64,000 nt of DNA, taken from NCBI GenBank assembly GCA_030740435.1, contig JASLXG010000066.1, positions 24,603-88,602 on the forward strand. The letters run 5' to 3'. A program made the position numbers and the translations under genes. The notes beneath the pieces are model-generated. The model saw only the letters and a list, made by a program, of their open reading frames with translations. It had not been told where the DNA came from and made no database searches. Numbering within the stretch: the stretch's first letter is position 1; every line of letters starts with the position of its first letter. Below are positions 836 to 41,042 of the stretch, piece by piece. This DNA is from Alphaproteobacteria bacterium (GTDB lineage: Bacteria; Pseudomonadota; Alphaproteobacteria; UBA2966).

Positions 836-848
836 GGAGCCAGGAACG

Positions 849-3521
849 ATGACAACACCCTATTACATTCCGGAAACCAACGTTCCGCTGCCGCCCAAGG
901 ACGCGGACGTCATCACCACCGCCTGCGACTACTGCATCGTGGCCTGCGGCTTCAAGGTCTACCGCTGGCCGGTGGCCGGCAACAACAAGGGTGGCCCCAA
1001 GGCCGGCCAGAACGCTTTCGGCGTCGACTTCCCGGTCTCCGCGCTGGGCGAGTGGGTGGCTCCCAACCAGCACAACATCGTGCTGCACAAGAACCAGCCC
1101 CACCACATCGTGATCATCCCCGACAAGGCCACCAAGCACGTCAACACGGATGGTGATTCGAGCCTGCGTGGCGGCTGCATCGCGCAAAAGGTCTACAATC
1201 CCCAGACGCCGACGCGCGACCGTCTGAAATCACCCTTTATGCGCATCTACGGCATCTTGCAGCCGGTGACCTGGGATTTCGCCCTCGACGTGGCGGCCGA
1301 GGTGGGGCGCCATGTCATCGCCAAGCACGGCGACAACGCCTATGGCGTCAAGACGTATTCCTACCAGTACATCGAGAACACCTACGCCATCACCAAGTTC
1401 GCGCTCCGCCACATCCGCACGGCCAACTTCACCTTCCATGATACGCCCTCGGACGTGTCGTCGACACCGGGCTTTCGCGACGCCGGCTTCGACAACTTCG
1501 GGCCGGCCTACGAAGACTGGATGAACGCCGAAACATTGTTCATGTGCGGCACCGATCCCTACGAGACCAAGACCATCCTCTTCACCCAGTGGATCATGAA
1601 GGGCATCCAGAACGGTCAGAAGGCCATCTTCATGCTGCCCCGCCGCACCGCCGGCGTTGCCTATGGCGAGAAGAACGGCGGCCTCTGGCTCGACGTAACC
1701 CCGGGCACCGACCTCCTGGTCATCAACGCCATCGCCCGCACCATCGTCGAGAACGGCTGGGAGGATTCGGAGTGGATCAAGAAGTGGGTCAACAACAAAT
1801 GGGAATCCTCCTCGGGCTTCGGCCAGGGCACGCGCAACACGCCCTGGCAGTGGCGCACCACCTGGGGCAAGTTCCAGACCAAGGGTTTCGCCGACTGGAA
1901 GAAGTGGCTCTTGAGCCGCGATGAGTTCAAGGTCGAAAACGCTTCCGCCGTCTCGGGCGTCGCCGCCAAGAAGATCCTGACCGCCGCCGAGTGGCTGGCC
2001 AAGCCCAAGAACGGCAAGCGGCCCAAGTCCTCGATCATGATCGAGAAGGGCCTTTACTGGTCCAACAACACCGGCAGCACCGAGGCCATCTCGGCGCTCG
2101 GCATTATCGTCGGGGCCGGCGGCCGGCCGGGCCAGGTCATCGGCCGGGCCGGCGGCCATCAGCGTGGCGGCCAGCGTGGCGGCAAATATCCGCGCAACAA
2201 GTCGCCCATGAAGGTGCCGGGCCGGCGCCGTCGGGCCCTGGATACCGATACCTGGACCATGGCCGGCCATACACACATGGCCCACGTCATCGGCACCACC
2301 TGGATCCAGTCCATGTGCGGCTCGCAGCAACTGGCCAAGCGCTTCCACGAACTGACGCTGGCCAACCCGCATCAGGTGCGTTCCTACGACAAGAGGGACA
2401 TCATCGAGAGTCTCAAGAAACGGGCCGATTCGGGCGGCATGGTGGTGATCAACCAGGAAATCTATCTGGTCGATCCCATCGGCAACCGTTATGCCGACAT
2501 CATCTTCCCGGCCGCCACCTGGGGCGAGGACAACTTCATGCGGGCCAACGGCGAACGCCGGCTCAGGCTCTACCAGAAGTTCTACGACGCCCCCGGCGAG
2601 GCCAAACCCGACTGGTGGATCATCGCCAACCTGGCCAAGCGCATGGGCTACGACGGCTTCGATTGGAAGAACTCCAACGACGTCGCCGAAGAGGCCTCGC
2701 GCTTCTCTCGCGGCAGCCGCAAGGACTTTCACATGGTCAAGGTGGCAGCCAAGCGCGAGGGCAAGACGCTGCACCGGAAGATGGCCGAATTCGGCACCAA
2801 CGGCATCCAGGGCCCGGTGTTCATGAACGACGACGGCTCGCTGATGGGCTGGAAGCGCTTGCATGACACCACCGCCAAACTGCCCGGTACGGGTCCGGCC
2901 GGGGCCAACGTCTTCAACAAGAAGTTGACCCACTTCAACAGCCAGACCGGCAAGTGCAACCTGCAGAAATCGCGCTGGTCGCTGTTTTCCGACTACTGGA
3001 ACTGGCTGAAGCCCAAGGGCGAGGAAATGTGGTGCACCTCGGGCCGCACCAACGAACGCTGGCAGTCGGGTTTCGACGACCGGCGCCGGCCCTACATCGT
3101 GCAGCGCTGGCCCGAGAACTATGTCGAGATGAGCCCCGAGGATGCCAAGGCCCGCGGCATCGAATCGGGAGATATGGTGATGGTCTACTCCGACCGGGTG
3201 CCCAGCCTGAAGGAAACCGTGCTCGGTGTCGAAGGCTCGGATTATTCCTTCGCCGGCCAGATGGCCAAGGGCAACGTCGAATTGACCCGGGCGGCGGTGA
3301 CCGGTGTGGCCATGGTGACGCGCCACATCAAGAAGGGCGTCCTCTATATGGACTTCCTGCACCCGGCCCAGCCGGCCAACGCGCTGGAGGGCCGCATCGT
3401 CGATTGGATCAGCGGCAATTATAATTACAAAATGGGCGTCGCCAAGGTGAAGAAGATCGGCGAATCCCCCTACAAGCGTTCCTTCCGCTCGATGTCGTTC
3501 GCGCCGCGCGATATCGTGTGA
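849..3521 (+). CDS. aioA: Arsenite oxidase large molybdopterin subunit (AioA-like, DMSO reductase superfamily), 890 aa
   Basis: The N-terminal C-X2-C-X3-C motif (TACDYCIVACGF) is typical of the AioA 3Fe-4S site rather than the 4-Cys motif of other Mo-bisPGD enzymes. Length and conserved blocks fit a molybdopterin oxidoreductase. It is paired with an upstream Rieske subunit. Confidence 0.7.
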   Translation: MTTPYYIPETNVPLPPKDADVITTACDYCIVACGFKVYRWPVAGNNKGGPKAGQNAFGVDFPVSALGEWVAPNQHNIVLHKNQPHHIVIIPDKATKHVNTDGDSSLRGGCIAQKVYNPQTPTRDRLKSPFMRIYGILQPVTWDFALDVAAEVGRHVIAKHGDNAYGVKTYSYQYIENTYAITKFALRHIRTANFTFHDTPSDVSSTPGFRDAGFDNFGPAYEDWMNAETLFMCGTDPYETKTILFTQWIMKGIQNGQKAIFMLPRRTAGVAYGEKNGGLWLDVTPGTDLLVINAIARTIVENGWEDSEWIKKWVNNKWESSSGFGQGTRNTPWQWRTTWGKFQTKGFADWKKWLLSRDEFKVENASAVSGVAAKKILTAAEWLAKPKNGKRPKSSIMIEKGLYWSNNTGSTEAISALGIIVGAGGRPGQVIGRAGGHQRGGQRGGKYPRNKSPMKVPGRRRRALDTDTWTMAGHTHMAHVIGTTWIQSMCGSQQLAKRFHELTLANPHQVRSYDKRDIIESLKKRADSGGMVVINQEIYLVDPIGNRYADIIFPAATWGEDNFMRANGERRLRLYQKFYDAPGEAKPDWWIIANLAKRMGYDGFDWKNSNDVAEEASRFSRGSRKDFHMVKVAAKREGKTLHRKMAEFGTNGIQGPVFMNDDGSLMGWKRLHDTTAKLPGTGPAGANVFNKKLTHFNSQTGKCNLQKSRWSLFSDYWNWLKPKGEEMWCTSGRTNERWQSGFDDRRRPYIVQRWPENYVEMSPEDAKARGIESGDMVMVYSDRVPSLKETVLGVEGSDYSFAGQMAKGNVELTRAAVTGVAMVTRHIKKGVLYMDFLHPAQPANALEGRIVDWISGNYNYKMGVAKVKKIGESPYKRSFRSMSFAPRDIV

Positions 3522-3530
3522 GTCGACTTG

Positions 3531-3573
3531 CGGGCGGGCTTGGCCGGGATTTTTTCTGGGTCAAGCCCGCCCG
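3531..3573 (+). terminator. GC-rich hairpin (12-bp perfect stem cgggcgggcttg/caagcccgcccg, 19-nt loop) between aioA and the HEAT-repeat gene; a possible partial terminator or attenuator
   Basis: The inverted repeat is read directly from the sequence and is followed by a moderately T-rich tract (atctttatgttcctttg). Downstream genes continue on the same strand, so full termination is unlikely. Confidence 0.3.
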
Positions 3574-3607
3574 ATCTTTATGTTCCTTTGGGATTAGAGT
3601 GCGATAA

Positions 3608-5803
3608 GTGATGAACCAGCATGACCCGCTTGCGCTCCAGCACAATGGAACGGCTGACGTCGTGGCCCTGAAGGCCAACGTCGTGGCCGCCCTGGCCGGC
3701 CTCCTGGGCCAAGGACCCGACGTGGTGCGCTGCGCCGCCGCCCGGGCCCTGGGGGTAATGGGATCCGAGGCTGCCGTCGAGCCACTGGTGGCGGCCTTGC
3801 TGGACGAGGACGAGGACGTGCGCACGGACGCCGCCGGGGCGCTGGCCCGTCTCGGCGCTGCGGCGGCCGACAAGCAGCTTCTGGAAAATTTGCTCGGCGA
3901 TCCCTGCGCCGACGTCAAGGCGGCCGCCATCCGGGCCCTGGCGGGCTCAAGGAATTCCGACGTCGTGCCTTGGCTGCGCCGCCTGGCGGCTGGCCGTGAC
4001 GAGGAGATCGCCTGGGACGAAGAGGCCTTTTTCGACCAGGACTGGGACGATTGGGTGGACTTGCAGGTGGCCGCCATCGAGGCCCTGGCCGAAATGGGCG
4101 GCACCGAGGCGGTGCCCGATATCGTCGCCGCCCTCGATGACGAATACGCCCAGGACATCACCGAGACCGCCTTCAAGGCCCTGGCGCGCCTGGGCGACGA
4201 GGGACTGACTGCGCTCTCGATCTATGCCGAGGGCGGCGACCAGCGCCTGCGCCGGCGCGCCGCGGCGGTCATGGCTACGGCCGGCGGCGAGGTGGCCGAG
4301 GCGGCGGTGGAGCGCGCGCTCGGCGATCCCGAGCCGGCCGTGCGCCTGGCCGTGGCCGAGGTGCTGGCCGCCAAGGCGGCCGCCGATCCCCGGCTCGAGG
4401 CTTTGCTCGGCGATGCCGATCCCGGGCTGCGCGCCATCGCGGCCGTGCGCTGGGGGGAGCACCACCCGGCCGGCCTGAGGCCGCTTTTCGAGGACCGCTC
4501 GGCCGCCGTGCGAACGGCTGCTTTCGCCGCCCTGGCGGCAGCCCCGGCCACTCCCGACGACGAAGGCCTGGCAGATCTCTTGCACCGTAACTTGGCGGCG
4601 ACGCCGGACCAGGTGCCGGCGGCCGCGGCCCAGGCCCTGGCGGCGCACTTCGGACAGGCGGCGCTCGATGACTTGGCGGCGCTGCTGGCGGACCGGTCCC
4701 GTGGACCGGAAGTGCGGCTGGGCGCGTTGCGTGGCCTTGGCCGTCTGGGCCTGGCGGCGGTGCCCGCGCTGAGCGGGCAATTGGCCGATGACGAACGCCA
4801 GATCCGCCTCGAAGCCATGACGGCGCTGGCCGGCGTCGCCAAGGCCGAGAGCTGGCCCAACGCCGCCGGCGAGAGCCTGCTGGCGGCCTTGCGCGGCGAG
4901 ATGGTGGCTGAGCCCGAGCCGGAACCAGAGGCCGAACCCGAGCCGGAACCAGAGCCCGAGCCCGAGCCCGACGAATCAGCCTTCCCGGAATCGACGCTGG
5001 CGGCCATCCTGGGCCCCGAATCGCCGCTGCTGGAAGCCCATGGCGAGGTCCGCGGTGGTGCCGAACTGGGTCCCGATGATTTGGAATTCCTCGGCTTGGC
5101 CCGCGAGGCCCGGCAGGCCGGCGGCAAGAAGCGGGTGCCGCTGGTGCCCGATGTGGCGACCCACCAGGACGTGCCGCGCTTTGCCGCCAACCTGCTCGGC
5201 GATATCGCCCGTGACGAAGTGGCGTTGGCGCTGACGCAAGCTCTGCCGGCCGCCGACCGCGAGTTGCGCATCGAGGCGGCGCGATCGTTGGGCCGCATCG
5301 GTGAGGTGCTGGGCGAGCTGCCCGAGGGGGCATTCGAGGCCCTGGCGGCGCTCAGCCAGGATCGTGAGCGCGATCTCAAGCTGGCCGCCGTGCGCAGCCT
5401 GGGCCTGGCTCCGCTGGCGCTGGCTGAGCCCTTGCTGCGGGCCGGACTCGAGGACGAGGACGGTTTCGTGCGCCGCGAGGCGGTCTCCGCCCTGGCCCGG
5501 CTGGGCCCCGTCGACGGTGCCGTCGACGCCCTTTTGCACGACAACGAGCCCGGCGTGCGCCTGGCCGTGGCGGAGGCGCTTTGCGCCTCGGGCCGCGAGG
5601 ACGCCCTGGCCCTGCTGATGGATTTCGCCTTTGCCTTCGGCGGCGCCCAGCGCCGCGAGGCCGGGCGGCTGCTGCGCCGCCTCGACGCCCCGGCCGCCAA
5701 TGCCCGGCTGTTGCAGGTGCTCGAAGACGAAAGCCGCGAGCCGGTCTGGCAGGTGGCCATCGAGATGCTGGAGGAAATCAATGCTTCCGTGGCGGGTGGA
5801 TAG
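3608..5803 (+). CDS. HEAT-repeat (PBS-lyase-like) protein, 731 aa, no signal peptide
   Basis: It contains many repeats of the form AAxALGxxG...AVxPLxxxLxDxDxxVRxxAAxAL, typical of HEAT/PBS-lyase repeats, and is Ala/Leu-rich. It also has an acidic (EP)n linker. Confidence 0.65.
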   Translation: MMNQHDPLALQHNGTADVVALKANVVAALAGLLGQGPDVVRCAAARALGVMGSEAAVEPLVAALLDEDEDVRTDAAGALARLGAAAADKQLLENLLGDPCADVKAAAIRALAGSRNSDVVPWLRRLAAGRDEEIAWDEEAFFDQDWDDWVDLQVAAIEALAEMGGTEAVPDIVAALDDEYAQDITETAFKALARLGDEGLTALSIYAEGGDQRLRRRAAAVMATAGGEVAEAAVERALGDPEPAVRLAVAEVLAAKAAADPRLEALLGDADPGLRAIAAVRWGEHHPAGLRPLFEDRSAAVRTAAFAALAAAPATPDDEGLADLLHRNLAATPDQVPAAAAQALAAHFGQAALDDLAALLADRSRGPEVRLGALRGLGRLGLAAVPALSGQLADDERQIRLEAMTALAGVAKAESWPNAAGESLLAALRGEMVAEPEPEPEAEPEPEPEPEPEPDESAFPESTLAAILGPESPLLEAHGEVRGGAELGPDDLEFLGLAREARQAGGKKRVPLVPDVATHQDVPRFAANLLGDIARDEVALALTQALPAADRELRIEAARSLGRIGEVLGELPEGAFEALAALSQDRERDLKLAAVRSLGLAPLALAEPLLRAGLEDEDGFVRREAVSALARLGPVDGAVDALLHDNEPGVRLAVAEALCASGREDALALLMDFAFAFGGAQRREAGRLLRRLDAPAANARLLQVLEDESREPVWQVAIEMLEEINASVAGG
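4908..4972 (+). repeat. Tandem DNA repeat of gagcccgagccggaaccagag-like units encoding an (EP)n low-complexity linker (AEPEPEPEAEPEPEPEPEPEPDE) inside the HEAT-repeat protein
   Basis: The direct repeat is visible in the sequence at about 4908-4972. Confidence 0.6.
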
Positions 5804-5841
5804 GGAGGCAAACGAACGATGCCAATGAGGAGAGGATGACA

Positions 5842-6618
5842 ATGAAAGCGCAGACGAAATTAGGCTCTTTGGCGATTGCCGTGGCGGTCGCGGTGGCCTT
5901 GGCGGCACCCGCCCAGGCGGCTAAGAAGTACAAGGAAATCGACGTCCAGAACGGCGCCACCATCAGCGGGCGTGTGAGCTTCGAAGGCGCGCTCCCGGCC
6001 GACGCGGTGGAGAAGATCCTGATCACCAAGGATCCCAAGATCTGCGGCGAGGGTGAACGCGAAGTGGTCTGGATCGACGTCAAGGACGGCGCGCTGCGCG
6101 GCAGCTTCGTCTTCATCAACAAAATAAAAGAGGGCAAGAAGTGGGGCGCCCCGACCGGCGGCAAGTACATCATCGACCAGAAGGGTTGCCGCTTCAATCC
6201 CTGGGCCCAGGTGGTGCAGCCCGGCCCCATCACCATCCGCCACTCGGACCCGGGGGCGCTGCATAACATCAACACGCGCGAGATCATCGGCGTGGGCAAG
6301 AAGAAGTCGGTCAAGCGCACCATGTTCAACTTCGGCCAGCCCGAGCCCGGCGATATCGAACAGGCGCTGAAGCCCAGGCGCTCAGCCTTCATCGGCATCA
6401 ACTGCGAGGCCCACAACTTCATGTTCGGCTACATGATGGCACCCAAACACCCCTATGCCGTGGTGGTCGCGGACGACGGCTCGTTCAGCCTTGGCGACGT
6501 GCCGCCAGGCAAGTATTCGGTGCGTGCCTGGCATCCCCGGCTCGGCCTCAAGAAGACCAAGATCACGGTGGCGGCCGGAGCCAAGGCGGAAGCCAATTTC
6601 GCTTTCAAGGCCAAGTAG
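5842..6618 (+). CDS. Secreted hypothetical protein (258 aa) with a signal peptide and carboxypeptidase-regulatory-like beta-sandwich motifs
   Basis: Signal peptide MKAQTKLGSLAIAVAVAVALAAPAQA with an AxA cleavage site. The C-terminal motif DDGSFSLGDVPPGKYSVRAWH resembles a CarbopepD_reg domain. A His/Met/Cys-rich patch INCEAHNFMFGYMMAPKH is present. The RBS aggagagg precedes the ATG at 5842. Confidence 0.45.
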   Translation: MKAQTKLGSLAIAVAVAVALAAPAQAAKKYKEIDVQNGATISGRVSFEGALPADAVEKILITKDPKICGEGEREVVWIDVKDGALRGSFVFINKIKEGKKWGAPTGGKYIIDQKGCRFNPWAQVVQPGPITIRHSDPGALHNINTREIIGVGKKKSVKRTMFNFGQPEPGDIEQALKPRRSAFIGINCEAHNFMFGYMMAPKHPYAVVVADDGSFSLGDVPPGKYSVRAWHPRLGLKKTKITVAAGAKAEANFAFKAK

Positions 6619-6649
6619 CGGCGCCGGACGGGTGCGAGCGGAGAGGACC

Positions 6650-8764
6650 GTGACGAAGGCGGGGCAGGGGCGAAGCAGGCAGGCGCTGCTGGCGCTGGCG
6701 GCGCTGACCCTGGCCGTTCTGGCTGCCTCGCCGGCCTGGGCCCTGGAGGCCAACGAATACCGCCAGGTCCTGGGCCTCGATTCGCGCAAAGTCGTTTGGT
6801 TCCTGGCCCAGATGCACCTTTTCTTCGGCGCCTTCGTGCTCGGCGTGCCGCTGTTCGCCGTGATCATCGAAATCGTCGGCTGGAAGAACGGCGACGAACG
6901 CTTCGACAAGCTGGCCTACGAATTCACCAGCCTGCTCAGCGTCGCCTATGCCACCACGGCGGCACTCGGCGGCATGCTGGCCTTCGCGCTGTTTACGCTT
7001 TACCCGACCTTCATGGGCTTCATGGCCGGAGCCTTCAAGGACGTCTTTTTCGTCTACGCCATCCTGTTTTTTGCCGAGACCTTCTGCCTCTATCTCTACT
7101 ACTACGGCTGGAAGGCGATGCAGGGGCGGGAGCCTTTCGGAAAAACCCTGCAACTGCTCTTCAAGACGGCCGGCGTGGTCATCGCAGGCCTTGGCCTGCT
7201 TTTCCTGTTCGGTCTTATCGGACCCGAGATGCGGGGCGATACCCGGGCCTTCATGGCGCTCTTGTACGTGCTGCCGCTGGGGGCCGGGATATATCTGCTG
7301 AAAGACGGCAAGTCGGGCCACATCCTGATCGGCATCCTGCTCAACCTGGCCGGCACCGGCATCATGCAGGCGGCCAACTCGATGGCCGGCTTCATGATGA
7401 GCCCGGCCGGCGTCAGCGAGGCCGGCGAGATCATCGGCAGCACCTGGCAGGTCTTCGAGAACGTGCTGGCCACGCCGGTGGCTATCCACCGCATGCTGGG
7501 CAATCTCGCCTTCGGCGGCCTGGTGGCGGGATCGTATGCCGCCGTCAAGTTCATCGGCGCCAAAACGGCCGAGGAAAAGGCGCACTACGACTGGATGGGC
7601 TACATCGCCAATTTCGTCGCCATCGCCGCCCTGATCCCGCTGCCCTTCGCCGGCTACTACCTGGGCCGCGAGGTCTATTCGACCTCGGCCGTCATGGGCA
7701 ACAACATGATGGGCGGCGATTTCTCCTGGACCTTCATCATCCAGGCCGTGCTGGTGGGCTCGCTGTTCTTGATCTCGAACTATTACCTCTGGTCCGGCAT
7801 GACCCGCATCCCGGGGTCCGAGCGCTATTACAAGTTCATCAAGTTCATCCTCTTTGCCCTGATCGTCTCCTTCGCCATCTGGCTGACGCCGCACAACCTG
7901 CCGCTGACGGGCTCGGAGGTGGGCGATATGGGCGGCAGCCAATACCACCCGACGCTCAAGTTCCTGGGCCTGATGCCGGCCAAGAACGCGGTGGTCAACC
8001 TGATCATCATCTCGACCTTCGTCAGCTTTCTTTTGTATCGCCGCGGCAACAAGGCCGATGCCGTGTCGATCCGGGCCCAGGGGCGGACGCCGATGATCGT
8101 CATCGGCCTGGCCGGCGCGGCGGCGCTCTTGATCGTTGGCCAATTCGCCTGGTCGCTGATGACCATGAGCCCGGCCGAGCTCGACCTGCCGGCCGACACG
8201 GCGCAGTACTTCCGCACCGTCGGTTGGCTCTTGATCGGCGAATGCGCCATGGTGGTGGTGGCCGTCGGCCTGGCGCTCACGGACCGCGGCAAGTGGGCCC
8301 AGGCGCTCTATCTCGCCTACACCGTCTTCAGCGTCGTGCTGTTCCTCGGCGTCTACGGCTTCGTGGTCATGGAGAAGGCCTCGCCCTTCCTGCGCGACGT
8401 TGCCGTGGCCCAGTTCCTGCAGCTCATCAGTGCCCTCATTCTGGTCTCCGCCATCGACCTATTCCTGTTCAAGGGCGCTCAGGAGATCGGCCCCCTGCAG
8501 TGGGGCAAGATGACCAACCGCAGCCAGTACGCGCTGCTGGCGCTGACCTTCGTCATCACCATGAACATGGGCCTGATGGGCTTCATCCGCTCAGGTTTGC
8601 GCGGCGACTGGCACATCTTCGGGGTCATGCGCGACACCTCGGAATGGTCCTACACGCCGACCAACGCCACCATGACCGAGATGGTCAGCCTGGCCGTGCT
8701 GGTCTTCATGGTGGGCGTCGCCTTCATGTTCTGGCTGGGCAGCATCGCTGCCAAGAAGGACTAG
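6650..8764 (+). CDS. Cytochrome bd oxidase subunit I (CydA)-like membrane protein, module 1, about 704 aa with a predicted cleavable signal peptide; no cydB partner
   Basis: The N-terminal region AQMHLFFGAFVLGVPLFAVIIEIVGW aligns with E. coli CydA [26 protein letters not shown], conserving the His19-equivalent. FFAETFCLYLYYYGW aligns with FFLESTFVGLFFFGW. VAIHRMLGNLAFGGLVAGSYAA matches the His186 helix. It is polytopic with extra C-terminal TM helices. The GTG start at 6650 follows the RBS ggagagg. The upstream ORF-track extension (from 6455) is Arg-rich nonsense. Confidence 0.7.
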   Translation: MTKAGQGRSRQALLALAALTLAVLAASPAWALEANEYRQVLGLDSRKVVWFLAQMHLFFGAFVLGVPLFAVIIEIVGWKNGDERFDKLAYEFTSLLSVAYATTAALGGMLAFALFTLYPTFMGFMAGAFKDVFFVYAILFFAETFCLYLYYYGWKAMQGREPFGKTLQLLFKTAGVVIAGLGLLFLFGLIGPEMRGDTRAFMALLYVLPLGAGIYLLKDGKSGHILIGILLNLAGTGIMQAANSMAGFMMSPAGVSEAGEIIGSTWQVFENVLATPVAIHRMLGNLAFGGLVAGSYAAVKFIGAKTAEEKAHYDWMGYIANFVAIAALIPLPFAGYYLGREVYSTSAVMGNNMMGGDFSWTFIIQAVLVGSLFLISNYYLWSGMTRIPGSERYYKFIKFILFALIVSFAIWLTPHNLPLTGSEVGDMGGSQYHPTLKFLGLMPAKNAVVNLIIISTFVSFLLYRRGNKADAVSIRAQGRTPMIVIGLAGAAALLIVGQFAWSLMTMSPAELDLPADTAQYFRTVGWLLIGECAMVVVAVGLALTDRGKWAQALYLAYTVFSVVLFLGVYGFVVMEKASPFLRDVAVAQFLQLISALILVSAIDLFLFKGAQEIGPLQWGKMTNRSQYALLALTFVITMNMGLMGFIRSGLRGDWHIFGVMRDTSEWSYTPTNATMTEMVSLAVLVFMVGVAFMFWLGSIAAKKD

Positions 8765-8768
8765 CCGC

Positions 8769-9746
8769 ATGACCGCCACCATGGCCAGGGTTGCGCTGTT
8801 CATGTTTCTGCTGCTGGGCCTTTTCCTGTGGGTCGGCAGCACCATCACGGCCATGACCGGCGGCGACAAGCGGCCCAAGGGCGGCGCCGTCGAGGTCAGC
8901 CCCGAGGGCGGCGAGGCCATCTTCTGGGGCAAGGGGCGCTGCTTCACCTGCCACAGCCTGGGCGGCCAAGGGAGCGCCGTGCGCTGCCCCAACCTGGGCC
9001 AATTCGGCGACAAGTTCGCGCTGCCCATCGGCGCCCGAGCGGCGGAGCGGGCCAAGGAACGCAGCGCCAAGACCGGCCAGACCTACACGACCACCGATTA
9101 CCTGGTGGAAAGCCTGGCCGAGCCTGGGGCCTACGTCGTCGAGGGCTACAAGAACGAGATGGCCATCGTCTACGCGCCGCCGATCTCGCTCAATCTTACC
9201 GAGATCAAGGCCGTGATCGCCTACTTGCAGAGCCAGGGCGGCGACGTCGACATGGAGGCGCTGAACAAGCCAAGCCCGATCAGCCAGAAGTTCTTCGCCC
9301 GCATCAATGCGGCCTCGGCCGCCGGTGGTGGCGATCCCGGTGCCGGCGAGGTGGTCTTCGAGGACAACTGCGCCGAATGCCATGACCTCGGTGGTGAAGA
9401 CGAGGAGCTGCCGGGTCCGGCGCTTTCGGGCGTCGGCAAGAAGGGCCTCAAGTTCCTGGCCGATGCCATCCTCAGGCCGGCCAAGGAGATCACCAAGGGT
9501 TTCGAGACGTATCAAGCGGTGATGAAGGACGGCCGCAAGCACGTTGGCCTGAAAAGCCGTGACGAGGGCGGCGAGGTCGACATCACCAAGGCCAACGGCG
9601 ACGTCGAGACGCTGGCCAAGGCCGAGATCAAGGAGCTCAAGGAAGACAAGGGCAAATCGATCATGCCCGAAGACCTGATCGAGGCCCTGACGGTCAAGGA
9701 CTATCAGGACGTCCTCTCGTTCCTGCTGTTGCAAAAGGGCGAGTAA
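8769..9746 (+). CDS. Membrane-anchored di-haem cytochrome c (module 1)
   Basis: N-terminal TM helix (VALFMFLLLGLFLWVG). Two CxxCH motifs (CFTCH, CAECH). The second domain carries GPALSGVGKKG...ILRP, a class I cytochrome c-like motif. Confidence 0.75.
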   Translation: MTATMARVALFMFLLLGLFLWVGSTITAMTGGDKRPKGGAVEVSPEGGEAIFWGKGRCFTCHSLGGQGSAVRCPNLGQFGDKFALPIGARAAERAKERSAKTGQTYTTTDYLVESLAEPGAYVVEGYKNEMAIVYAPPISLNLTEIKAVIAYLQSQGGDVDMEALNKPSPISQKFFARINAASAAGGGDPGAGEVVFEDNCAECHDLGGEDEELPGPALSGVGKKGLKFLADAILRPAKEITKGFETYQAVMKDGRKHVGLKSRDEGGEVDITKANGDVETLAKAEIKELKEDKGKSIMPEDLIEALTVKDYQDVLSFLLLQKGE

Positions 9747-9752
9747 GGCACC

Positions 9753-10718
9753 ATGGCAAAGCTCAGAATCAGTCGCTTCTGGTGGGTCGTGATCACCATT
9801 GTGGCGGTCTATGCCTTCGTCAAATGGGGCATTCCGGCGCTCTCGCGGGAAATCACGGCGCTGCCCTTCCCGCTTTCGGTGCCGGGCACCTTGATGTTCA
9901 TCTACATCGTGCTGACGCTGGTGGCGCTGTTTCTCTTCATCACCTTTTCGGACGACTACCTGGAAGAATTCAGCCGCCCCATCAAGCGTCTGCTGCGCGG
10001 CGAATTCGGCGCCATCCCGCGCCTCGTGGTGCTGCTGGCGGTGCCGTTGATCGTCGGCTGGCAGGTTTACGACGTGACCGTGCCCAAGGTCGAGCTGCCC
10101 TCGACGCTGCGCATCCAGCACCCCTCGTCGAACTTCCCCAAGAAGTTCGAGAGCATGAACAATCCCTTCGCCAATCCCGATGAAGCCACGGTCGCGGCCT
10201 TCATCGAGCAGGCCAAGGACGAGGAGATCGAGTTCATCGCCCAAGTCCAGGGCGACATCGAGGCCTGGCGCGAAGAGATCGATCCAGACAACCCCTACGA
10301 TTTCATCCCCACCAAGCCCTGGCGTGCCTTTCTCGCCCAGCTCGAAGAGGGCGAGGTCGAGCCGGCCGTGGCCAAGGCGGCGCTGGTGGAGAAGAACCTC
10401 TTCGAGGGGCGCGCCCTATATGCCATGAACTGCCGGCCCTGCCACGGCGACAGCGTCGCCGGCGACGGCCCGCTGGCCGACGGCTTCAAGCTCAGGCCGA
10501 TCAACTTCACCGACAACGGCACCATCGAGACCATCGTCGAGGGCTACACCTTCTGGCGCGTGAGCAACGGCGGCCCCGGCCTGCCCACCGAGGCCACACC
10601 CTGGGATTCGGCCATGCCCGAGTGGAAGGTCAGCCTGACCGAGGCCGAGCGCTGGAAGATCATCCTGGCCGAATACGACCTGGCCCAGAAGACGCCGCGC
10701 ATCCCGGAGAGCCATTGA
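9753..10718 (+). CDS. Membrane-bound mono-haem cytochrome c (module 1)
   Basis: Two to three N-terminal TM helices. A single CRPCHGD haem motif sits in a C-terminal soluble domain carrying the G[YF]xFWR...GGPGLP motif. It is a paralog of the gene at 16716-17483. Confidence 0.7.
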   Translation: MAKLRISRFWWVVITIVAVYAFVKWGIPALSREITALPFPLSVPGTLMFIYIVLTLVALFLFITFSDDYLEEFSRPIKRLLRGEFGAIPRLVVLLAVPLIVGWQVYDVTVPKVELPSTLRIQHPSSNFPKKFESMNNPFANPDEATVAAFIEQAKDEEIEFIAQVQGDIEAWREEIDPDNPYDFIPTKPWRAFLAQLEEGEVEPAVAKAALVEKNLFEGRALYAMNCRPCHGDSVAGDGPLADGFKLRPINFTDNGTIETIVEGYTFWRVSNGGPGLPTEATPWDSAMPEWKVSLTEAERWKIILAEYDLAQKTPRIPESH

Positions 10719-12337
10719 TGGTTTCGCGCATCACCATGGCGCTGGGCTTGGGCCTTCTCGCTTTCGCGGTCTCGCCGGCCGAGGCCGCCGACGTCTCGCA
10801 GGATCCCCAGCCCGAGTTCACGGACGAGCTGCGGGCTGAAGGCCGGCAGATCTACTTCCAGCGCTGCAGCTTCTGCCACGGCCTGCTGGGCGACGGCGAG
10901 GGACCGGCGGCGCCCTTCATGGACCCCCGGCCGCGCGACTTCACGCTGGGCACCTTCAAGTTCCGCACCACCCAGTCGGGCGAGCTGCCGCAAGATTCAG
11001 ACATCTTCCGCACCGTCAGCCGCGGCCTCAGCGGCACCGCCATGCAGGCCTTCGACGACGAGCGCATCAAGAACGGCCTCAGCGAGCACCAGCGCTGGGC
11101 CGTGATCGCCTACATCCAGACCTTCGCCCAGGAGTTCGACGATGAGGAACTGGACCCGGTCAAGACCGGCAAGGTGGTGGCGCTGCCCAAGGACCGCCCG
11201 GCCTATGGCGCCGAAATCGTGGCCAAAGGCAAAGAAATCTTTCTCAAGGCCAAGTGCTGGGAATGCCACGGCAAGTCGGGCCGCGGCGACGGCCAAAAAT
11301 CCTTCGACCGCAAGGACGACTGGGGCTTTCCCATCCGCATCCGCAACGTCACCCATCCCTGGAAGATCAAGGCCGGCGACCGCGTCGAGGACATCTACAT
11401 GCGTTTCTCGACCGGCATCAGCGGCACGCCCATGCCGTCTTTCGTCAAGGCCCTGAGCGAGAGCGAACGCTGGCAGCTGGCCAACTTCATCAAGTCTTTG
11501 CAGATCCAGCGCACCAGCCACCAGGTGCTGAAGGCGCTGCGCCTGGAGGGCGAGCTGCCCGAGAGCCCGGATGATCCGCGCTGGAAGCAAGCCGAGCCCA
11601 TGGACGTGATTCTTACCGGGCAGGCCGTGGCGCCGCCGCGCTGGCAAAGCCCGTCGGTCGAGATGGTGACGCTGAGGGCCGTCTTCAATGACAACGAAAT
11701 CGCTTTCCGGCTGACTTGGGACGACCCCTTCAAGGACACCAAGCACGACGCCGGGCAGGAACTCGACGTCAAGGAGATCAGCGCCAGCGGCATCTACAGT
11801 TCATACGTCGACGTCAACGAGTTGGCGGTGCGCAAGCTGGAGACCTATCGCGACGCCGTGGCGCTGCAGTTTCCCGTGAAGCCCACCGAGGGCACCAGGC
11901 GGCCGCACTTCCTGCGCGGCTCGGCCTCGGATCCGGTGCATCTCTGGCTTTGGAAAGCCGATGAGGGCGCTGTCGAGGAAGCCGTCGGCCGGGGTTGGCG
12001 CCAAGGCCTGAGGCCGCAGCCCGAGGAGCAGCAGCAGGTCGCCGCCAAGGCCGCCTGGGACCAGGGGCGCTGGCAACTGGTGATGAAACGGCCCTTGCGC
12101 ACCGAGGACAAGAACGACGTCCAGTTCGAGGCCGGCCGCTTCATTCCGCTGTCGCTCAATGCCTGGGACGGCTCCAACGGCGAACACGGTTTGATCATGA
12201 GCCTCTCTAGTTGGTATTACGTCTTCCTCGAAGCGCCGACGCCGATCAGCGTTTACCTCTATACCATCCTGGCGATCTTGATCACGGGCGGTCTGGGTTT
12301 CTGGTTGATGAGAAAAGCTGAAGCGGAAGACGCCTAG
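10718..12337 (+). CDS. Di-haem cytochrome c fused to an EB_dh/DOMON-like haem-binding domain, with a C-terminal TM anchor (module 1)
   Basis: The ATG at 10718 overlaps the upstream stop (tgATG). Signal peptide MVSRITMALGLGLLAFAVSPAEA. Haem motifs CSFCHG and CWECHG. The C-terminal half (WDDPFKDTKHD...ALQFPVK...DPVHLWLWKAD...WQLVMKRPL) resembles the ethylbenzene-dehydrogenase gamma / DOMON haem b domain. Terminal helix YLYTILAILITGGLGFWLM. Confidence 0.65.
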   Translation: MVSRITMALGLGLLAFAVSPAEAADVSQDPQPEFTDELRAEGRQIYFQRCSFCHGLLGDGEGPAAPFMDPRPRDFTLGTFKFRTTQSGELPQDSDIFRTVSRGLSGTAMQAFDDERIKNGLSEHQRWAVIAYIQTFAQEFDDEELDPVKTGKVVALPKDRPAYGAEIVAKGKEIFLKAKCWECHGKSGRGDGQKSFDRKDDWGFPIRIRNVTHPWKIKAGDRVEDIYMRFSTGISGTPMPSFVKALSESERWQLANFIKSLQIQRTSHQVLKALRLEGELPESPDDPRWKQAEPMDVILTGQAVAPPRWQSPSVEMVTLRAVFNDNEIAFRLTWDDPFKDTKHDAGQELDVKEISASGIYSSYVDVNELAVRKLETYRDAVALQFPVKPTEGTRRPHFLRGSASDPVHLWLWKADEGAVEEAVGRGWRQGLRPQPEEQQQVAAKAAWDQGRWQLVMKRPLRTEDKNDVQFEAGRFIPLSLNAWDGSNGEHGLIMSLSSWYYVFLEAPTPISVYLYTILAILITGGLGFWLMRKAEAEDA

Positions 12338-12391: not shown

Positions 12392-13054
12392 ATGAGAATA
12401 ATTTTTGCCTCATCTTTGGCGCTGGCGCTGAGCCTGGCCGCAAGTGGTCCGGCCCGGGCTGATGCGGCGGCCGGCAAGGCCGCCTTCGCGGCCCAGAAAT
12501 GCGAGGGCTGCCATTACACCGAAGGGCCGGCCAGGGAGAAGTCGATCGACGATCAGTTGGCCAAGAAGGGGCCTGAGCTGTGGTACGCCGGTTCCAAGTT
12601 CCAGGCGCCCTGGCTCGAGGCCTGGCTGCAAAAACCCGATGCCATCCGGCCGCTGAAGTACAACACGCTCGAACAAGAGAACCCCGGCGACCATCCCAAG
12701 CTTTCGGGCGGCGATGCCAAGAACGTCGCCGCTTTCCTCATGAGCCTGACCTCGGACGCTGTCAAGGCGGGCAAGGTCAAGGCCAAGAGGAACGCCAAGG
12801 GGCGCCTGATTTTCTCCAAGAAAATGCCCTGTTCCGGTTGCCACTCCTCCATCGGCCGCAAGAAGAAAGTCGGCGGCGGGCGTTCCGGCCCGACCCTGGT
12901 CGGGGCCGGCCAGCGCCTCAACCCGGACTGGATCCTGGCCTATCTCAAGACGCCCGACGTCTTCAAGCCGATCAAGGCCATGCCCGTGTTCGCCGGTATC
13001 CTGGGCGACAAGGACATGCTCAACCTGGCCCGCCACGTGGCCAGCTTCAAGTAG
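12392..13054 (+). CDS. Di-haem cytochrome c with two CcoO/NorC-like haem domains (module 1 only)
   Basis: Signal peptide. Haem motifs CEGCH and CSGCH. Each is followed by a GPxL...G....W...LxxP......MP block resembling the cbb3 CcoO / NorC haem domain. Confidence 0.7.
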   Translation: MRIIFASSLALALSLAASGPARADAAAGKAAFAAQKCEGCHYTEGPAREKSIDDQLAKKGPELWYAGSKFQAPWLEAWLQKPDAIRPLKYNTLEQENPGDHPKLSGGDAKNVAAFLMSLTSDAVKAGKVKAKRNAKGRLIFSKKMPCSGCHSSIGRKKKVGGGRSGPTLVGAGQRLNPDWILAYLKTPDVFKPIKAMPVFAGILGDKDMLNLARHVASFK

Positions 13055-13074: not shown

Positions 13075-13443
13075 ATGAAAAGATTGACCACCGCCGCTGC
13101 CTTCTGCACCCTGGCGTTTGCCCTGGCCGTTCCTTCGGCCCAGGCCGCCGATGCCAAGAAGGTCTACAACTTCTATTGCGCCCAGTGCCACGGCACCGCC
13201 GGCAAAGGCAAGGGACCCAACGTCACCAAGGACTTTCCCGTCAGCCCGCGCGACTTCACCAATGCCGCCGAGATGGACAAGCTCTCGGACGCCGACATGA
13301 AGAACGTGATTCTGGATGGCGGTCCGGCGGCCTCCAAGTCGCCCATGATGCCGCCCTGGTCCAAGACCCTGAAGGGCGACGAGGTTGACGCTCTGGTCGG
13401 CTACCTGCGCAAGTTCTGCGGCTGCAAGGGCAAGCAAGGCTAG
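13075..13443 (+). CDS. Periplasmic mono-haem cytochrome c, 122 aa (module 1 only)
   Basis: The RBS gggagga precedes the ATG at 13075. Signal peptide MKRLTTAAAFCTLAFALAVPSAQA. CAQCHG motif. Confidence 0.7.
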   Translation: MKRLTTAAAFCTLAFALAVPSAQAADAKKVYNFYCAQCHGTAGKGKGPNVTKDFPVSPRDFTNAAEMDKLSDADMKNVILDGGPAASKSPMMPPWSKTLKGDEVDALVGYLRKFCGCKGKQG

Positions 13444-13531
13444 TAAGGCGCCCGGTGCCGCCGGGGAGGCGGCGCCGCTTCGTTTCAATTTTGGGAGAAG
13501 GGAGCCGCCGCGGTCTTGGACACTGCGGCCT

Positions 13532-13723: not shown

Positions 13724-13846
13724 ATGACGATGACTGAAAACAACGGTGCAACAGGCAGTGGATCAGCCAACGCCTGGGCCGGTCCGGCCCTCTTTACGGT
13801 CGTTGCCGTGGTCATGCTGGTCTTCTTCTATTGGTTCCTGTCCTAG
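13724..13846 (+). CDS. Candidate 40-aa single-TM peptide (MTMTENNGATGSGSANAWAGPALFTVVAVVMLVFFYWFLS)
   Basis: Hand-translated ORF on the cluster strand upstream of cydA-like 2. The RBS is weak. Confidence 0.25.
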   Translation: MTMTENNGATGSGSANAWAGPALFTVVAVVMLVFFYWFLS

Positions 13847-13897: not shown

Positions 13898-14014
13898 ATG
13901 AAGGACTACGTGGTGCCCTTTGTGGCGGCGTTCGTGGTGTGGGGTCTCCTCTTTCTCGGTCTCGACGTGGTGATCATGAACGCCCAGGGACTGAACCTGA
14001 TCTATCAGCCGTAG
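13898..14014 (+). CDS. Candidate 38-aa single-TM peptide (MKDYVVPFVAAFVVWGLLFLGLDVVIMNAQGLNLIYQP), 10 nt upstream of cydA-like 2
   Basis: Hand-translated ORF. The RBS gaggg lies 7 nt upstream of the ATG. In size and position it looks like a CydX-like small subunit. Confidence 0.3.
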   Translation: MKDYVVPFVAAFVVWGLLFLGLDVVIMNAQGLNLIYQP

Positions 14015-14023: not shown

Positions 14024-15880
14024 GTGACGCACAGCAAGGTTTTGACCGCCTGGCGCCCCTGGGTGCTGGCGGCTCTGGTGGCGACGCTGTTGCTGGCCCT
14101 GGTGCCGCTGCTGGGCAGCGCCCTGGATATCGCGTCGCCGGCCCTGGCGGCCGAAGGCGAGGCGGCGGCGGCGGCAAGCGGCGAGCAGGCGGCGGCCCCG
14201 GCCGGCCCGACCATCGCGCCGCCCAAACTGAAGAGCACCGACTATCCGGTTGTGGCCGGCGTCAACGGACGCATCTTCGTCTGGCTGGCGGCGCAATTGC
14301 ACCTCTGGTTCGCGGCCTTCGTGCTGGCCGTGCCGATCTTCGTCTTCATCATCGAAGCCATCGGCATGTACAGCCGCGACCAACGCTACGACAACATGGC
14401 CTACGAGTTCATCAAGGTCAGCATCACCGCCTATTCCCTGACCGCCATCCTGGGTGGCCTGTTGGCCATCGGCCTGATCGTTTTCTACCCGCACCTCTTC
14501 CAGTACATGTCCGGCGTCTTCAAGGAATCGATGGTCTGGTATGCGGTGCTGTTCTTCGCCGAAAGCGCCTGCCTTTACATCTATTACTACGGCTGGCACT
14601 GGCTGCAGGGCGGCTTCCGCAAGTGGGTTCATCTGACGCTGGGGCTGGTGCTGAATGGCGTCGGCACGACGCTGATGTTCCTGGCCAACGCCTGGCTCAC
14701 CTTCCAGATGAGCCCGGCCGGCGTCGATGCCGCCGGCCTCTATTCCGGCGACGTCTGGGCCGCCATCCACAATCCCTTGTGGAACCCCATCAACCTGCAC
14801 CGCATGATCGCCAACGTCGCCTACGGCGGCTCGGTGGTCGGCGCCTATGCCGCCTTCCGGTTTCTCTCGTCGCGCACGGCCGAGCTCAGGGCGCATTACG
14901 ACTGGATGGGCTACACCGCCAACTTCATCGCCATCAGCGCGCTCTTGCCGCTGCCCTTCGCCGGCTACTACCTGACGGCCGAGATCTACGCCTACAGCCA
15001 GCAGATGGGCATCACCCTGATGGGCGGCGTCTTCGCCTGGCTCTTCATCATCCAGGCGGTGCTGATCGGCACGCTGTTCCTCTCGGCCAACTATTATCTC
15101 TGGTGCGGCATGGGGCGCAGCGACGGGGCGCCGCGTTACAACCCCTATATCAAGTACATAGCCTTCGGTCTGGTGGCCTCGTTCCTGGTCTGGTTCACGC
15201 CCCACACCCTGGTGCTGACGAACGAGGAACTGAAGGCTCTGGGCGGGCCCTACCACAAGTACCTGGGGCCGCTGGGCATCATGCCGGCCAAGAACACGGC
15301 CGTGAACTACATGATCATCCTGACGGCGCTGAGTTTCCTGATTTACCGCCGCGCCAACAAGATCCCGACGGTAAGCTGGGTCAAGATCGGCAATGCCGTG
15401 CAGGTGGCCATGTTCACGGCCGCCGTCGTCAACATCCTTATCCTGGGCGTCTACCACGGCTACTTCACCAACACCGTCTACAAGGTGGCGAGCTCGATCC
15501 CCCAGGTGTTGACGACGCTGGTGGTGATCTTCGTCAGTACGCTCATCGACGTCTTCATGTACCGCGGCGCCAAGGACGTGGCGCCGCTGCATTGGGGCCG
15601 ATTGCCCGAACGCGCCCAGTACGCGCTCTTCCTGCTGGCCGTCTCGTTCACCTGGCTGATGGGCCTGATGGGCTACATCCGCTCGGGCATCCGCCAGCAC
15701 TGGCACGTGGTCGGCATCTTCCGCGACAACTCGGCCGACGCCTTCACGCCGACCCTGGCGGGCGGTGCCAATATCGTCTCTGTGGGGGTCATCATCTTCC
15801 TGGTGATGGTCATCTTCGTCTTCTGGGTCAGCCAGATCAGCGGCCGCAAGACCGAAGTGGCCGGATACTGGAGGACCTAG
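14024..15880 (+). CDS. Cytochrome bd subunit I (CydA)-like membrane protein, module 2, 618 aa with a signal peptide and an Ala-rich periplasmic N-terminal extension; no cydB
   Basis: AAQLHLWFAAFVLAVPIFVFIIEAIGM (His19-equivalent). FFAESACLYIYYYGW. PINLHRMIANVAYGGSVVGAYAA (His186-equivalent). About 55% identical to the module 1 paralog over conserved blocks. GTG start per the ORF track. Confidence 0.7.
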   Translation: MTHSKVLTAWRPWVLAALVATLLLALVPLLGSALDIASPALAAEGEAAAAASGEQAAAPAGPTIAPPKLKSTDYPVVAGVNGRIFVWLAAQLHLWFAAFVLAVPIFVFIIEAIGMYSRDQRYDNMAYEFIKVSITAYSLTAILGGLLAIGLIVFYPHLFQYMSGVFKESMVWYAVLFFAESACLYIYYYGWHWLQGGFRKWVHLTLGLVLNGVGTTLMFLANAWLTFQMSPAGVDAAGLYSGDVWAAIHNPLWNPINLHRMIANVAYGGSVVGAYAAFRFLSSRTAELRAHYDWMGYTANFIAISALLPLPFAGYYLTAEIYAYSQQMGITLMGGVFAWLFIIQAVLIGTLFLSANYYLWCGMGRSDGAPRYNPYIKYIAFGLVASFLVWFTPHTLVLTNEELKALGGPYHKYLGPLGIMPAKNTAVNYMIILTALSFLIYRRANKIPTVSWVKIGNAVQVAMFTAAVVNILILGVYHGYFTNTVYKVASSIPQVLTTLVVIFVSTLIDVFMYRGAKDVAPLHWGRLPERAQYALFLLAVSFTWLMGLMGYIRSGIRQHWHVVGIFRDNSADAFTPTLAGGANIVSVGVIIFLVMVIFVFWVSQISGRKTEVAGYWRT

Positions 15881-15883
15881 GCG

Positions 15884-16702: not shown

Positions 16703-16715
16703 GCAGGGGCGCGGC

Positions 16716-19260: not shown

Positions 19261-19270
19261 GAGAGTGTCC

Positions 19271-36705: not shown

Positions 36706-36714
36706 GATCCGCCC

Positions 36715-41040: not shown

Positions 41041-41042
<2 letters not shown>
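40449..41042 (-). CDS. DUF1285-like conserved protein
   Basis: This is the conserved alphaproteobacterial neighbour of the CoA pyrophosphatase and cca genes. Its start codon shares a CATG with the divergent moxR start. Confidence 0.4.

Follow-up and report, generated by a model that had tools for sequence, protein, structure and literature searches.

A CydA homologue of probable OR-N2 type, encoded without CydB beside an iodate reductase-like gene cluster in uncultured marine bacteria

What is a homologue of CydA, subunit I of cytochrome bd, doing in a gene cluster that has no CydB gene and is rich in genes for cytochromes c? The question is raised by the gene at positions 6650-8764 of a 64,000-nt stretch of contig JASLXG010000066.1 from an Alphaproteobacteria bacterium. 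We call this whole stretch the window, and all positions given here refer to it. In public databases the product of 704 amino acids (aa), like that of a second gene at 14024-15880, is named 'cytochrome ubiquinol oxidase subunit I' or 'cytochrome bd-type quinol oxidase subunit 1'. These names mislead, because both proteins are without a quinol site and without CydB. The best explanation of the 704-aa protein is that it serves, within the membrane, as the haem-binding core of a bd-like respiratory complex that lacks CydB and receives its electrons from cytochromes c, and we are highly confident from its sequence that it belongs to the OR-N2 family. It is an addition to this catalogued, biochemically untested family and not new in kind; the new aspect, which appears unreported, is the linkage of OR-N2 modules to iodate reductase in marine low-oxygen bacteria.

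The gene starts with a GTG codon, with GGAGAGGA 5' of the start. An alternative longer reading from the ATG at 6455 runs into the upstream gene, and public gene calls use the 704-aa form. The open reading frame (ORF) proposed in the initial annotation is borne out by an NCBI protein of the same length from a marine 'Alphaproteobacteria bacterium' metagenome-assembled genome (MAG), to which the product is 100% identical. The motifs that were quoted are all in place: QMHLFFG at aa 54-60, AIHRM at aa 278-282, FKDVFFVYAILFFAETF at aa 129-145, and LAASPAWA followed by LEAN at aa 24-35. The estimate of about 180 aa more than CydA agrees with a surplus of 182 aa over E. coli CydA (522 aa). The proposed cleavable signal peptide is supported by its A-x-A site (A29-W-A31), which is kept in 39 of 40 orthologues. 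The protein is thus predicted to be exported with its N-terminus out, and cleavage would leave this N-terminus in the periplasm, as in CydA.

Homology of the protein to CydA is beyond doubt, and it is visible only to profile and fold methods: E. coli CydA found no match in the window by BLAST, and an NCBIfam scan of the protein gave none. The Pfam family PF01654 (CydA) matches at E 2e-10, restricted to the N-terminal aa 46-159. With a profile built from diverse relatives, Geobacillus CydA is hit at E 6e-18 and E. coli CydA at E 4e-7, and hhalign aligned the diverse set (A2) with E. coli CydA at a probability of 95% across residues 8-212. The diverse set was required, as the profile of near-identical homologues (A1) reached only 36% against the single E. 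coli sequence. The AlphaFold2 model (predicted local distance difference test 78, predicted template modelling score 0.76) has CydA chains exclusively as its top Foldseek matches. We found both the N-terminal four-helix bundle, with similarity around the His19 ligand, and the nine-helix core fold of CydA. The similarity to bd subunit I on which the initial annotation depended is therefore significant by both the Pfam and the hhalign measure.

Which of the functional residues of CydA are retained? The equivalences are collected in Table 1, where Ec denotes the numbering of E. coli CydA. The histidines of QMHLFFG and AIHRM had been taken as haem b ligands. Both indeed fall on ligand positions, His56 on Ec His19 and His280 on Ec His186; the haem type needs correction for the first, since His19 ligates haem d in E. 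coli CydA and haem b595 in Geobacillus. It had also been stated that the region around Ec Glu99 does not align. We found that it does, with Tyr136 at the Glu99 position and the invariant Glu143 at that of Glu107; one residue is deleted between the two, like in the qOR3 type. That Glu99 itself is not conserved was correct. We infer the mapping from Met442 to Trp654 from a hidden Markov model (HMM) alignment that is sub-threshold there, and from spacing. The alignment places S648-G-L-R651-G-D-W654 opposite E. coli E445-Y-G-R448-Q-P-W451, and Met442/Asn446 and Ser648...Trp654 are spaced exactly as the Met393 and Glu445 positions are in the OR-N2 reference (Murali Table S6). At the canonical di-haem site Glu99 is replaced by Tyr136, as placed by hhalign, and Glu445 by Ser648, as placed by the sub-threshold alignment and the spacing of Murali. 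In a 75-sequence alignment of close relatives His56 is present in 74 sequences, and Tyr136, Glu143, His224, His280, His415, His433 and His655 are present in all 75. The polar intramembrane residues Glu143, His224 and Asp314 are invariant.

In the AlphaFold2 model the signal helix (aa 4-26) is followed by 17 transmembrane (TM) helices, and the charge distribution is compatible with the N-terminus out and the C-terminus in, like in CydA. The surplus length, which had been assigned to extra C-terminal helices, is instead internal: the last two helices bear the TM8 motif of CydA in altered form, with E445-x2-R-x2-W changed to S648-x2-R651-x2-W654. The surplus over CydA consists of TM hairpins inserted at aa 163-218, 357-412, 479-505 with 578-606, and 506-577, which replace the Q-loop and flank TM4 and TM8. 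The 618-aa paralogue encoded downstream is without the hairpins at aa 163-218 and about 506-577, that is, four helices; the helices that replace the Q-loop (357-412) and those between TM7 and TM8 are common to both proteins. From the model of the 704-aa protein the paralogue would have 13 TM helices plus the signal helix, or 14, where about 14 are the norm for OR-N2. The 704-aa type would have four more than a usual OR-N2 protein, through two inserted hairpins. These two are its least conserved segments (0.65 and 0.82), while the periplasmic loops 329-356 and 413-440 together with TM7 are almost invariant (0.93-0.97). Between TM6 and TM7 no Q-loop or quinol-binding residues could be aligned; the alignments to CydA end at Ec residue 212, and where the Q-loop would lie there are two TM helices with two short loops. 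We also considered a new quinol site within the hairpins specific to the 704-aa type, and judge it unlikely because conservation is lowest in those hairpins.

The absence of a CydB-like gene from the cluster, noted in the initial annotation, is confirmed. In the roughly 55 translated genes and ORFs of the window the Pfam scan gave no match to Cyt_bd_oxida_II (PF02322), and tblastn with E. coli CydB and CydX found nothing, a result whose scope is the 64-kb window. A full set of haem d ligands combined with cydB, the outcome against which the initial annotation had set its reading, is accordingly not what the locus holds. Instead, the bd-like gene is followed by three cytochrome genes (Table 1), with which it forms what we call module 1. 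Locus counts here and below were drawn from the 80 closest species-level loci (the best 80 of 436 stretches that encode a relative in a species-representative genome collection), and their denominators are the informative loci. All three partner cytochromes carry TM segments of their own. The third matches EB_dh at E 1e-23 and TIGR03477 with 111 bits, and its PDB matches are NxrC (7B04_C) and EbdC (2IVF_C). Its dihaem c part (aa 34-261) also matches chain B of PDB 6H5L at E 1.5e-53, an entry that a passage of a preprint (10.64898/2026.07.28.741245) cites as a HAO-type structure of Kuenenia stuttgartiensis; by sequence similarity this match links the predicted EB_dh fusion subunit to anammox electron carriers.

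These features lead to OR-N2 as described by Murali, Gennis and Hemp (2021, bioRxiv 10.1101/2021.01.16.426971): a CydA homologue with no quinol site and about 14 TM helices, encoded in operons with several cytochromes c and an ebdC homologue, often with no second cydA, and bearing the signature H(19) Y(99) E(107) H(126) H(186) M/N(393) S(445) W. Compared with Table S6 of that work, the bd-like protein has nine of nine signature positions (H56 Y136 E143 H224 H280 M442/N446 S648 W654), and cytochromes c with an EB_dh subunit accompany the gene in 56-57 of 57 related loci. A protein cluster of Nitrospira and Manganitrophaceae (P0268) is 36% identical to it (E 2e-86), with the same signature pattern and spacing. 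The initial annotation had pointed to poorly characterised bd-like families associated with cytochromes c. This guess stands as far as an uncharacterised bd-like protein without quinol site and CydB beside cytochromes c is concerned, and is refined here to OR-N2. Membership of OR-C was considered and rejected. OR-C likewise has no quinol site and a cytochrome c as presumed donor, but it has eight TM helices and a CxxCH motif within CydA, whereas our protein is free of CxxCH and has just two Cys residues, and its signature places it in another clade.

How does the module compare with known systems? With canonical CydAB(X) (6RKO, 5DOQ) the protein shares the equivalents of His19, Glu107 and His186, probably those of His126 and Met393, and the N-out, C-in orientation. 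Unlike CydAB(X) it has no Q-loop and no CydB or CydX homologue, Glu99 is Tyr and Glu445 is Ser, and it differs further by a cleavable signal peptide and by a surplus of eight TM helices; its electron input is presumably from cytochromes c. With the known OR-N2 proteins, including the NIDE0901-like proteins of Nitrospira, it shares the signature, the missing quinol site and CydB, and the company of cytochromes c and an ebdC homologue. A CuB-like site has been suggested for NIDE0901. The setting differs: in place of NXR the partner here is an iodate reductase cluster, and the gene is carried by uncultured bacteria from the sea and from groundwater, nearly all of them labelled Proteobacteria, a group in which OR-N had been recorded before. 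The closest parallels in gene content are the bd-like_3/bd-like_4 and alt_NxrC_2 cluster of Nitrospira moscoviensis (PMC6606698) and TO_1 of Ca. Manganitrophus (bioRxiv 10.1101/2021.11.15.468770). All have the same four-gene module, in which a bd-like protein is joined by a pair of membrane cytochromes c and by a periplasmic haem b subunit that carries one TM segment and two CxxCH motifs, and the cluster of N. moscoviensis is likewise duplicated a few genes downstream (PMC6606698). Those hosts oxidise nitrite or Mn(II), whereas the neighbours here are Idr, a HEAT-repeat protein, a cupredoxin-like protein and a tetrapyrrole cassette.

The duplication, which was absent from the initial annotation, is found 5 kb downstream, where a second CydA-like gene opens a second module of the same composition (Table 1). 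This second module is present in 49 of 55 related loci. We weighed whether the two paralogues form an obligatory heterodimer of the CydAA' type, and judge this unlikely because both keep the 'catalytic' signature, each has its own partner set, and the 704-aa type occurs alone in six loci. Directly 5' of the 618-aa gene lie two conserved ORFs of 38 aa with the motifs WAGPALF...FFWWFL and PFVAAF...FLGLD...QGL. They belong to no family in a Pfam scan, and tblastn gave 48 and 50 matches across the fetched loci (E <= 0.01), including four contigs identical to the window. They may be analogues of small subunits of the CydX/CydS kind for module 2.

Relatives of the 704-aa protein are widespread. More than 4,600 database proteins match it, the best 120 at 74-81% identity, and clustering of the wider family at 50% leaves 916 representatives at E <= 1e-3 and 164 at E <= 1e-30. 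The best 80 of the 436 stretches come from uncultured, metagenome-derived genomes, mostly marine, many of them from oxygen-minimum zone (OMZ) series (Arabian Sea, ETNP, SI/Saanich-type names) and some from groundwater. Their labels read Alpha-, Beta-, Gamma- or Deltaproteobacteria and in occasional cases Nitrospirae, with 72-81% identity across the groups. A plasmid collection contained no relative of the bd-like protein, and hence no plasmid-borne copy from a cultured host came to light.

Table 1. Positions of the features discussed, in window numbering; Ec, E. coli CydA numbering; Tat, twin-arginine translocation; SAM, S-adenosylmethionine
Feature	Position	Strand	Details
IdrB-like Rieske small subunit, Tat signal	245-835	+	TIGR02694 115 bits; SRRQFLL at aa 39-45 of 202-aa ORF; called in identical contigs
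IdrA-like catalytic subunit with molybdenum bis-pyranopterin guanine dinucleotide (Mo-bisPGD), iodate reductase/arsenite oxidase clade	849-3521	+	Rieske_3, Molybdopterin and Molydop_binding
HEAT-repeat protein, 730 aa	3611-5803	+	HEAT_2 E 2e-54
Periplasmic putative type-1 copper (cupredoxin-like) protein with C-terminal CarboxypepD_reg-like beta-sandwich	5842-6618	+	Signal peptide
bd-like gene of module 1	6650-8764	+	OR-N2-type CydA homologue, 704 aa, signal peptide and 17 predicted TM helices
Signal peptide, aa 1-31	6650-6742	+	Predicted cleavage after A29-W-A31; basic n-region, hydrophobic helix aa 4-26
His56, Ec His19	6815-6817	+	hhalign and PDB profile alignments
Tyr136, Ec Glu99	7055-7057	+	hhalign and PDB profile alignments
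Glu143, Ec Glu107	7076-7078	+	hhalign and PDB profile alignments
His224, about Ec His126	7319-7321	+	At, or at most one helical turn from, His126
His280, Ec His186	7487-7489	+	hhalign and PDB profile alignments
Met442, probably Ec Met393; candidate second ligand of b558-like haem	7973-7975	+	Sub-threshold alignment and spacing
Ser648, probably in place of Ec Glu445	8591-8593	+	Sub-threshold alignment and spacing
Arg651/Trp654, probably Ec Arg448/Trp451	within 7973-8614	+	Sub-threshold alignment and spacing
His655	8612-8614	+	In all 75 aligned sequences of close relatives; in 24/31 of the diverse set
Membrane-anchored dihaem cytochrome c	8769-9746	+	CxxCH at aa 58 and 201; directly downstream of the bd-like gene in 57/57 related loci
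Monohaem cytochrome c on hydrophobic N-terminal membrane domain of about three segments	9753-10718	+	56/57 loci
Dihaem cytochrome c fused to EB_dh (EbdC/NxrC-type) haem b domain, C-terminal TM anchor, 'alt-NxrC'-like	10718-12337	+	56/57 loci
Soluble dihaem cytochrome c	12392-13054	+	Domain scans
Soluble monohaem cytochrome c	13075-13443	+	Domain scans
Terminator-like hairpin, 10-bp stem, 9 G-C pairs	13453-13477	+	Consensus match only; closes the idr and module-1 unit
Two conserved 38-aa single-TM ORFs	13730-13846 and 13898-14014	+	Directly 5' of the 618-aa bd-like gene
Second module, whole	14024-19024	+	
Second module: bd-like protein, 618 aa	14024-15880	+	47% identical to the 704-aa protein, same nine signature residues
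Second module: dihaem cytochrome c	15884-16702	+	
Second module: monohaem cytochrome c	16716-17483	+	
Second module: dihaem cytochrome c with EB_dh	17480-19024	+	
Tetrapyrrole cassette gene 1: Usp and PCP_red (BchB C-terminal-like) protein	19187-20944	+	
Tetrapyrrole cassette gene 2: AhbD/NirJ2-like radical SAM/SPASM and PCP_red protein	20958-22250	+	293 bits, below equivalog cut-off
Tetrapyrrole cassette gene 3: protoporphyrinogen/coproporphyrinogen oxidase-like (HemY/CgoX-like) flavoprotein	22165-23637	+	Start uncertain
Cytochrome bc1 complex	34682-37266	-	Rieske protein with Tat signal, cytochrome b, cytochrome c1; 16 kb downstream of the cluster

With which enzyme does module 1 travel? The IdrA-like protein encoded upstream scores 401 bits against TIGR02693, slightly over the cut-off of 359. 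It is 66% identical to the product of a Vibrio chromid gene and 48% identical to its counterpart in Azonexus hydrophilus NCP973, which is encoded in an idr-type cluster; this strain is listed as an isolated iodate respirer (PMC13455634). Identity is only 27-31% to proteins annotated as arsenite oxidase large subunits ('arsenate reductase (azurin) large subunit'), including that of the arsenite oxidiser NT-25. Contigs that are identical over this region continue upstream of the window; there a sigma-54 regulator is followed by two dihaem peroxidases of the CCP/MauG type (P1, P2) and then by the Rieske and molybdenum subunits. As an operational criterion for idr, Reyes-Umana 2021 used an AioA-like large subunit adjoining IdrB and two cytochrome c peroxidase genes (PMC8692401). 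By this adjacency of idrP1P2 the large subunit is of the IdrA type, with iodate reductase as its predicted activity. Heterologous activity of idrABP1P2 has been reported for one alphaproteobacterial MAG from an OMZ and for one SAR324 MAG (PMC13455634).

From idrA to the last cytochrome c gene, across the HEAT-repeat protein, the putative cupredoxin, the bd-like gene, its three partners and two soluble cytochromes c, the gaps measure 5-90 bp, and a strong terminator-like hairpin follows. Because of these short gaps and the hairpin the genes look like one operon, and module 1 seems to be co-transcribed with the idrP1P2BA-type cluster. The association extends beyond this contig: an IdrA-like gene is found in 46 of the 48 loci that have at least 9 kb of upstream sequence. 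These linked IdrA-like genes fall into two classes, 27 loci with more than 75% identity to the gene of the window and 19 with 45-60%. Loci of the former class have the gene order of the window; in the latter (e.g., 452-12154 of locus L007) the cupredoxin-like gene lies upstream of idrP1 and an extra small cytochrome c precedes the bd-like gene. The idrABP1P2 island of cultured iodate respirers (Yamazaki 2020; Reyes-Umana 2021, PMC8692401) agrees with our locus in its upstream content and order, which in A. hydrophilus NCP973 are sigma-54 regulator, two peroxidases, small and large subunit; it differs in that it ends with one small cytochrome c and moaA. Cultured iodate reducers thus have idr without a bd-like module, and a few lineages (Acidiferrobacteraceae, Arenicellales) have bd-like modules without idr nearby. 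Because of these latter loci the function of the module would be general and not specific to Idr. In the literature searched we found no mention of idrA together with cytochrome bd.

What, then, does the complex do? We regard a cytochrome-c-fed terminal O2 reductase as the leading possibility, with a probability of roughly 45%. Judged by its aligned residues, the protein keeps His56, the ligand position of the O2-reactive haem, the b558-type His280, and the proton-channel equivalents Glu143 and His224. OR-N complexes have been proposed as the cytochrome-c-oxidising terminal oxidases of Nitrospirales and Nitrospinota (PMC12342949, PMC10839748, PMC10579370), and the TO_1 module stands at the 98th expression percentile in the Mn-oxidiser (bioRxiv 10.1101/2021.11.15.468770). 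Electrons would pass from the bc1 complex to soluble cytochromes c or the cupredoxin, then through the EB_dh and c-haem subunits to the His280/Met442 haem and on to the His56 haem, where O2 would be reduced with cytoplasmic protons delivered via Glu143 and His224. The O2 could be the ambient nanomolar O2 of oxygen-minimum zones, or O2 or peroxide could come from iodate reduction; in one model of iodate respiration an O2 intermediate is consumed by a terminal oxidase (summarised in PMC8692401). The complex would then act as a terminal oxidase of high affinity, expressed together with iodate reductase and its peroxidases, and the operon an 'island' of cytochrome-c-dependent reductases for strong oxidants. 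Several points weigh against O2 reduction. Glu99 and Glu445, which help to build the canonical di-haem O2 site, are replaced by Tyr and Ser, and a new substrate site might be formed by the loops in place of the Q-loop, which are conserved more strongly than any other part of the protein. Cytochrome-c-dependent O2 reduction is experimentally unconfirmed for OR-N, no enzyme of this type having been purified or assayed (PMC10839748, PMC12342949). Finally, homologous modules are kept in strictly anaerobic anammox bacteria, which argues against a family function in O2 reduction only (PMC3578206, PMC6606698).

The initial annotation had preferred electron transfer between quinol and cytochromes c over O2 reduction, a role that earlier publications had proposed for these proteins (Lucker 2013, PMC3578206; Mundinger 2019, PMC6606698). 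Here an ACIII-like quinol:cytochrome c oxidoreductase, or one working in reverse from cytochrome c to quinone (the Lucker 2013/Kartal 2013 hypothesis), would feed IdrAB and the peroxidases from the quinol pool via c- and b-haems. The known idr clusters have no quinol dehydrogenase of their own (PMC8692401; Azonexus locus), and the module sits in the same apparent operon as idr. Conservation of the b558-type ligands His280 and Met442, the extreme conservation of the loops that replace the Q-loop, and retention of the family in anaerobic anammox bacteria (PMC3578206) fit as well. We nevertheless consider this role unlikely. It is weakened because a bc1 complex is encoded nearby, so that a second quinol:cytochrome c oxidoreductase is not needed, and because no residues align to the quinol site of CydA (also PMC3578206). 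The equivalents of His19, Glu107 and His126 are invariant, and those of the cytoplasm-side proton channel are not required by a periplasmic quinol site; scores for ActF/PsrC are far below those for CydA and CydB, and some loci have the module without idr. Could the protein instead be a membrane anchor and electron wire, which tethers the cytochromes, the cupredoxin and the molybdenum enzyme in a supercomplex while its haems relay electrons with no turnover at His56? The Nitrospira module was proposed as an anchor point for the periplasmic NXR (PMC6606698), the three partners each have TM segments, and two canonical active-site residues are lost. Yet 74-81% identity across MAGs with Alpha-, Beta-, Gamma- and Deltaproteobacteria and Nitrospirae labels, and the invariant Glu143, His224 and Asp314, exceed what a scaffold needs, and IdrAB-type enzymes are soluble and use soluble carriers, which makes a purely structural role distinctly unlikely.

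Another strong oxidant of the pathway, such as H2O2, hypoiodous acid or nitric oxide, might take the place of O2. Published models of iodate respiration yield HIO and H2O2 (PMC8692401), canonical bd oxidases show side activities with peroxide and NO (PMC12342949), and the module is apparently co-transcribed with iodate reductase and two peroxidases. It is, however, also found in nitrite and Mn oxidisers and in lineages that have no idr close by, and direct support for such an activity is lacking; we hold this idea to be improbable. The oxidative direction, finally, would have the Idr-like enzyme and the two peroxidases oxidise iodide or hypoiodous acid, with electrons passing through the cupredoxin and cytochromes c to the two OR-N2 oxidases and then to O2. 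This would mirror the nitrite oxidisers, in which NXR, a periplasmic high-potential molybdoenzyme, is encoded beside the same bd-like/alt-NxrC module, and if true it would be a biological route for marine iodate formation, a mechanism that the iodate literature calls in need of research. Against this, the IO3-/I- couple yields very little energy with O2 as acceptor. Iodate reduction moreover rises when idrABP1P2 from OMZ MAGs is expressed in a heterologous host (PMC13455634), and we regard oxidation as very improbable.

The remaining neighbours add candidate accessory functions. The HEAT-repeat protein occupies the equivalent position in both idr variants and in an idr-less locus (L082). The product of 5842-6618, annotated merely as 'carboxypeptidase regulatory-like', has an amicyanin-type copper motif (H141...C188-x2-H191-x2-M194) that is invariant in 42-68 homologues. 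In its AlphaFold2 model (pLDDT 83.5) the N-terminal domain matches pseudoazurin, plastocyanin and amicyanin in Foldseek with probabilities of 0.96-1.0 and weak E values of 5e-3 to 4e-2. It is plausibly a type-1 copper carrier, a prediction in line with what was already noted for NXR/bd-like clusters. The three tetrapyrrole genes stand directly upstream of the bd-like module in the idr-less loci L082 and L014, and adjoin bd-like or idr genes in seven of seven informative loci retrieved from the radical-SAM side. Because the trio is syntenic with bd-like modules, its conserved position suggests a dedicated haem supply or modification. Farther away, at 41041-45796, a MoxR-type AAA ATPase, a DUF58 protein and a BatA/DUF4159 protein make up a Bat-like (aerotolerance-type) operon, which appears unrelated to the bd-like gene.

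In summary, thousands of metagenomic proteins bear the misleading label 'cytochrome ubiquinol oxidase subunit I'. In Nitrospira, Nitrospina and Mn-oxidising Nitrospirota, organisms that are hard to grow, the OR-N bd-like complexes are regarded as the principal terminal oxidases, and none of these complexes has been characterised. The same module is now found in abundant uncultured bacteria of OMZs and groundwater, strongly conserved and in an apparent operon with iodate reductase. The cupredoxin-like gene, the bd-like gene and the three cytochrome genes, together with a candidate haem-maturation cassette, make a compact clonable set with which the family could be studied in a heterologous host. 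What merits follow-up is that in OMZ bacteria two OR-N2 modules, a cupredoxin-like protein and a tetrapyrrole cassette are linked to iodate reductase, both tightly and in many genomes. This linkage offers the concrete hypothesis that iodate respiration may be tied to the scavenging of O2 or peroxide in oxygen-minimum zones.

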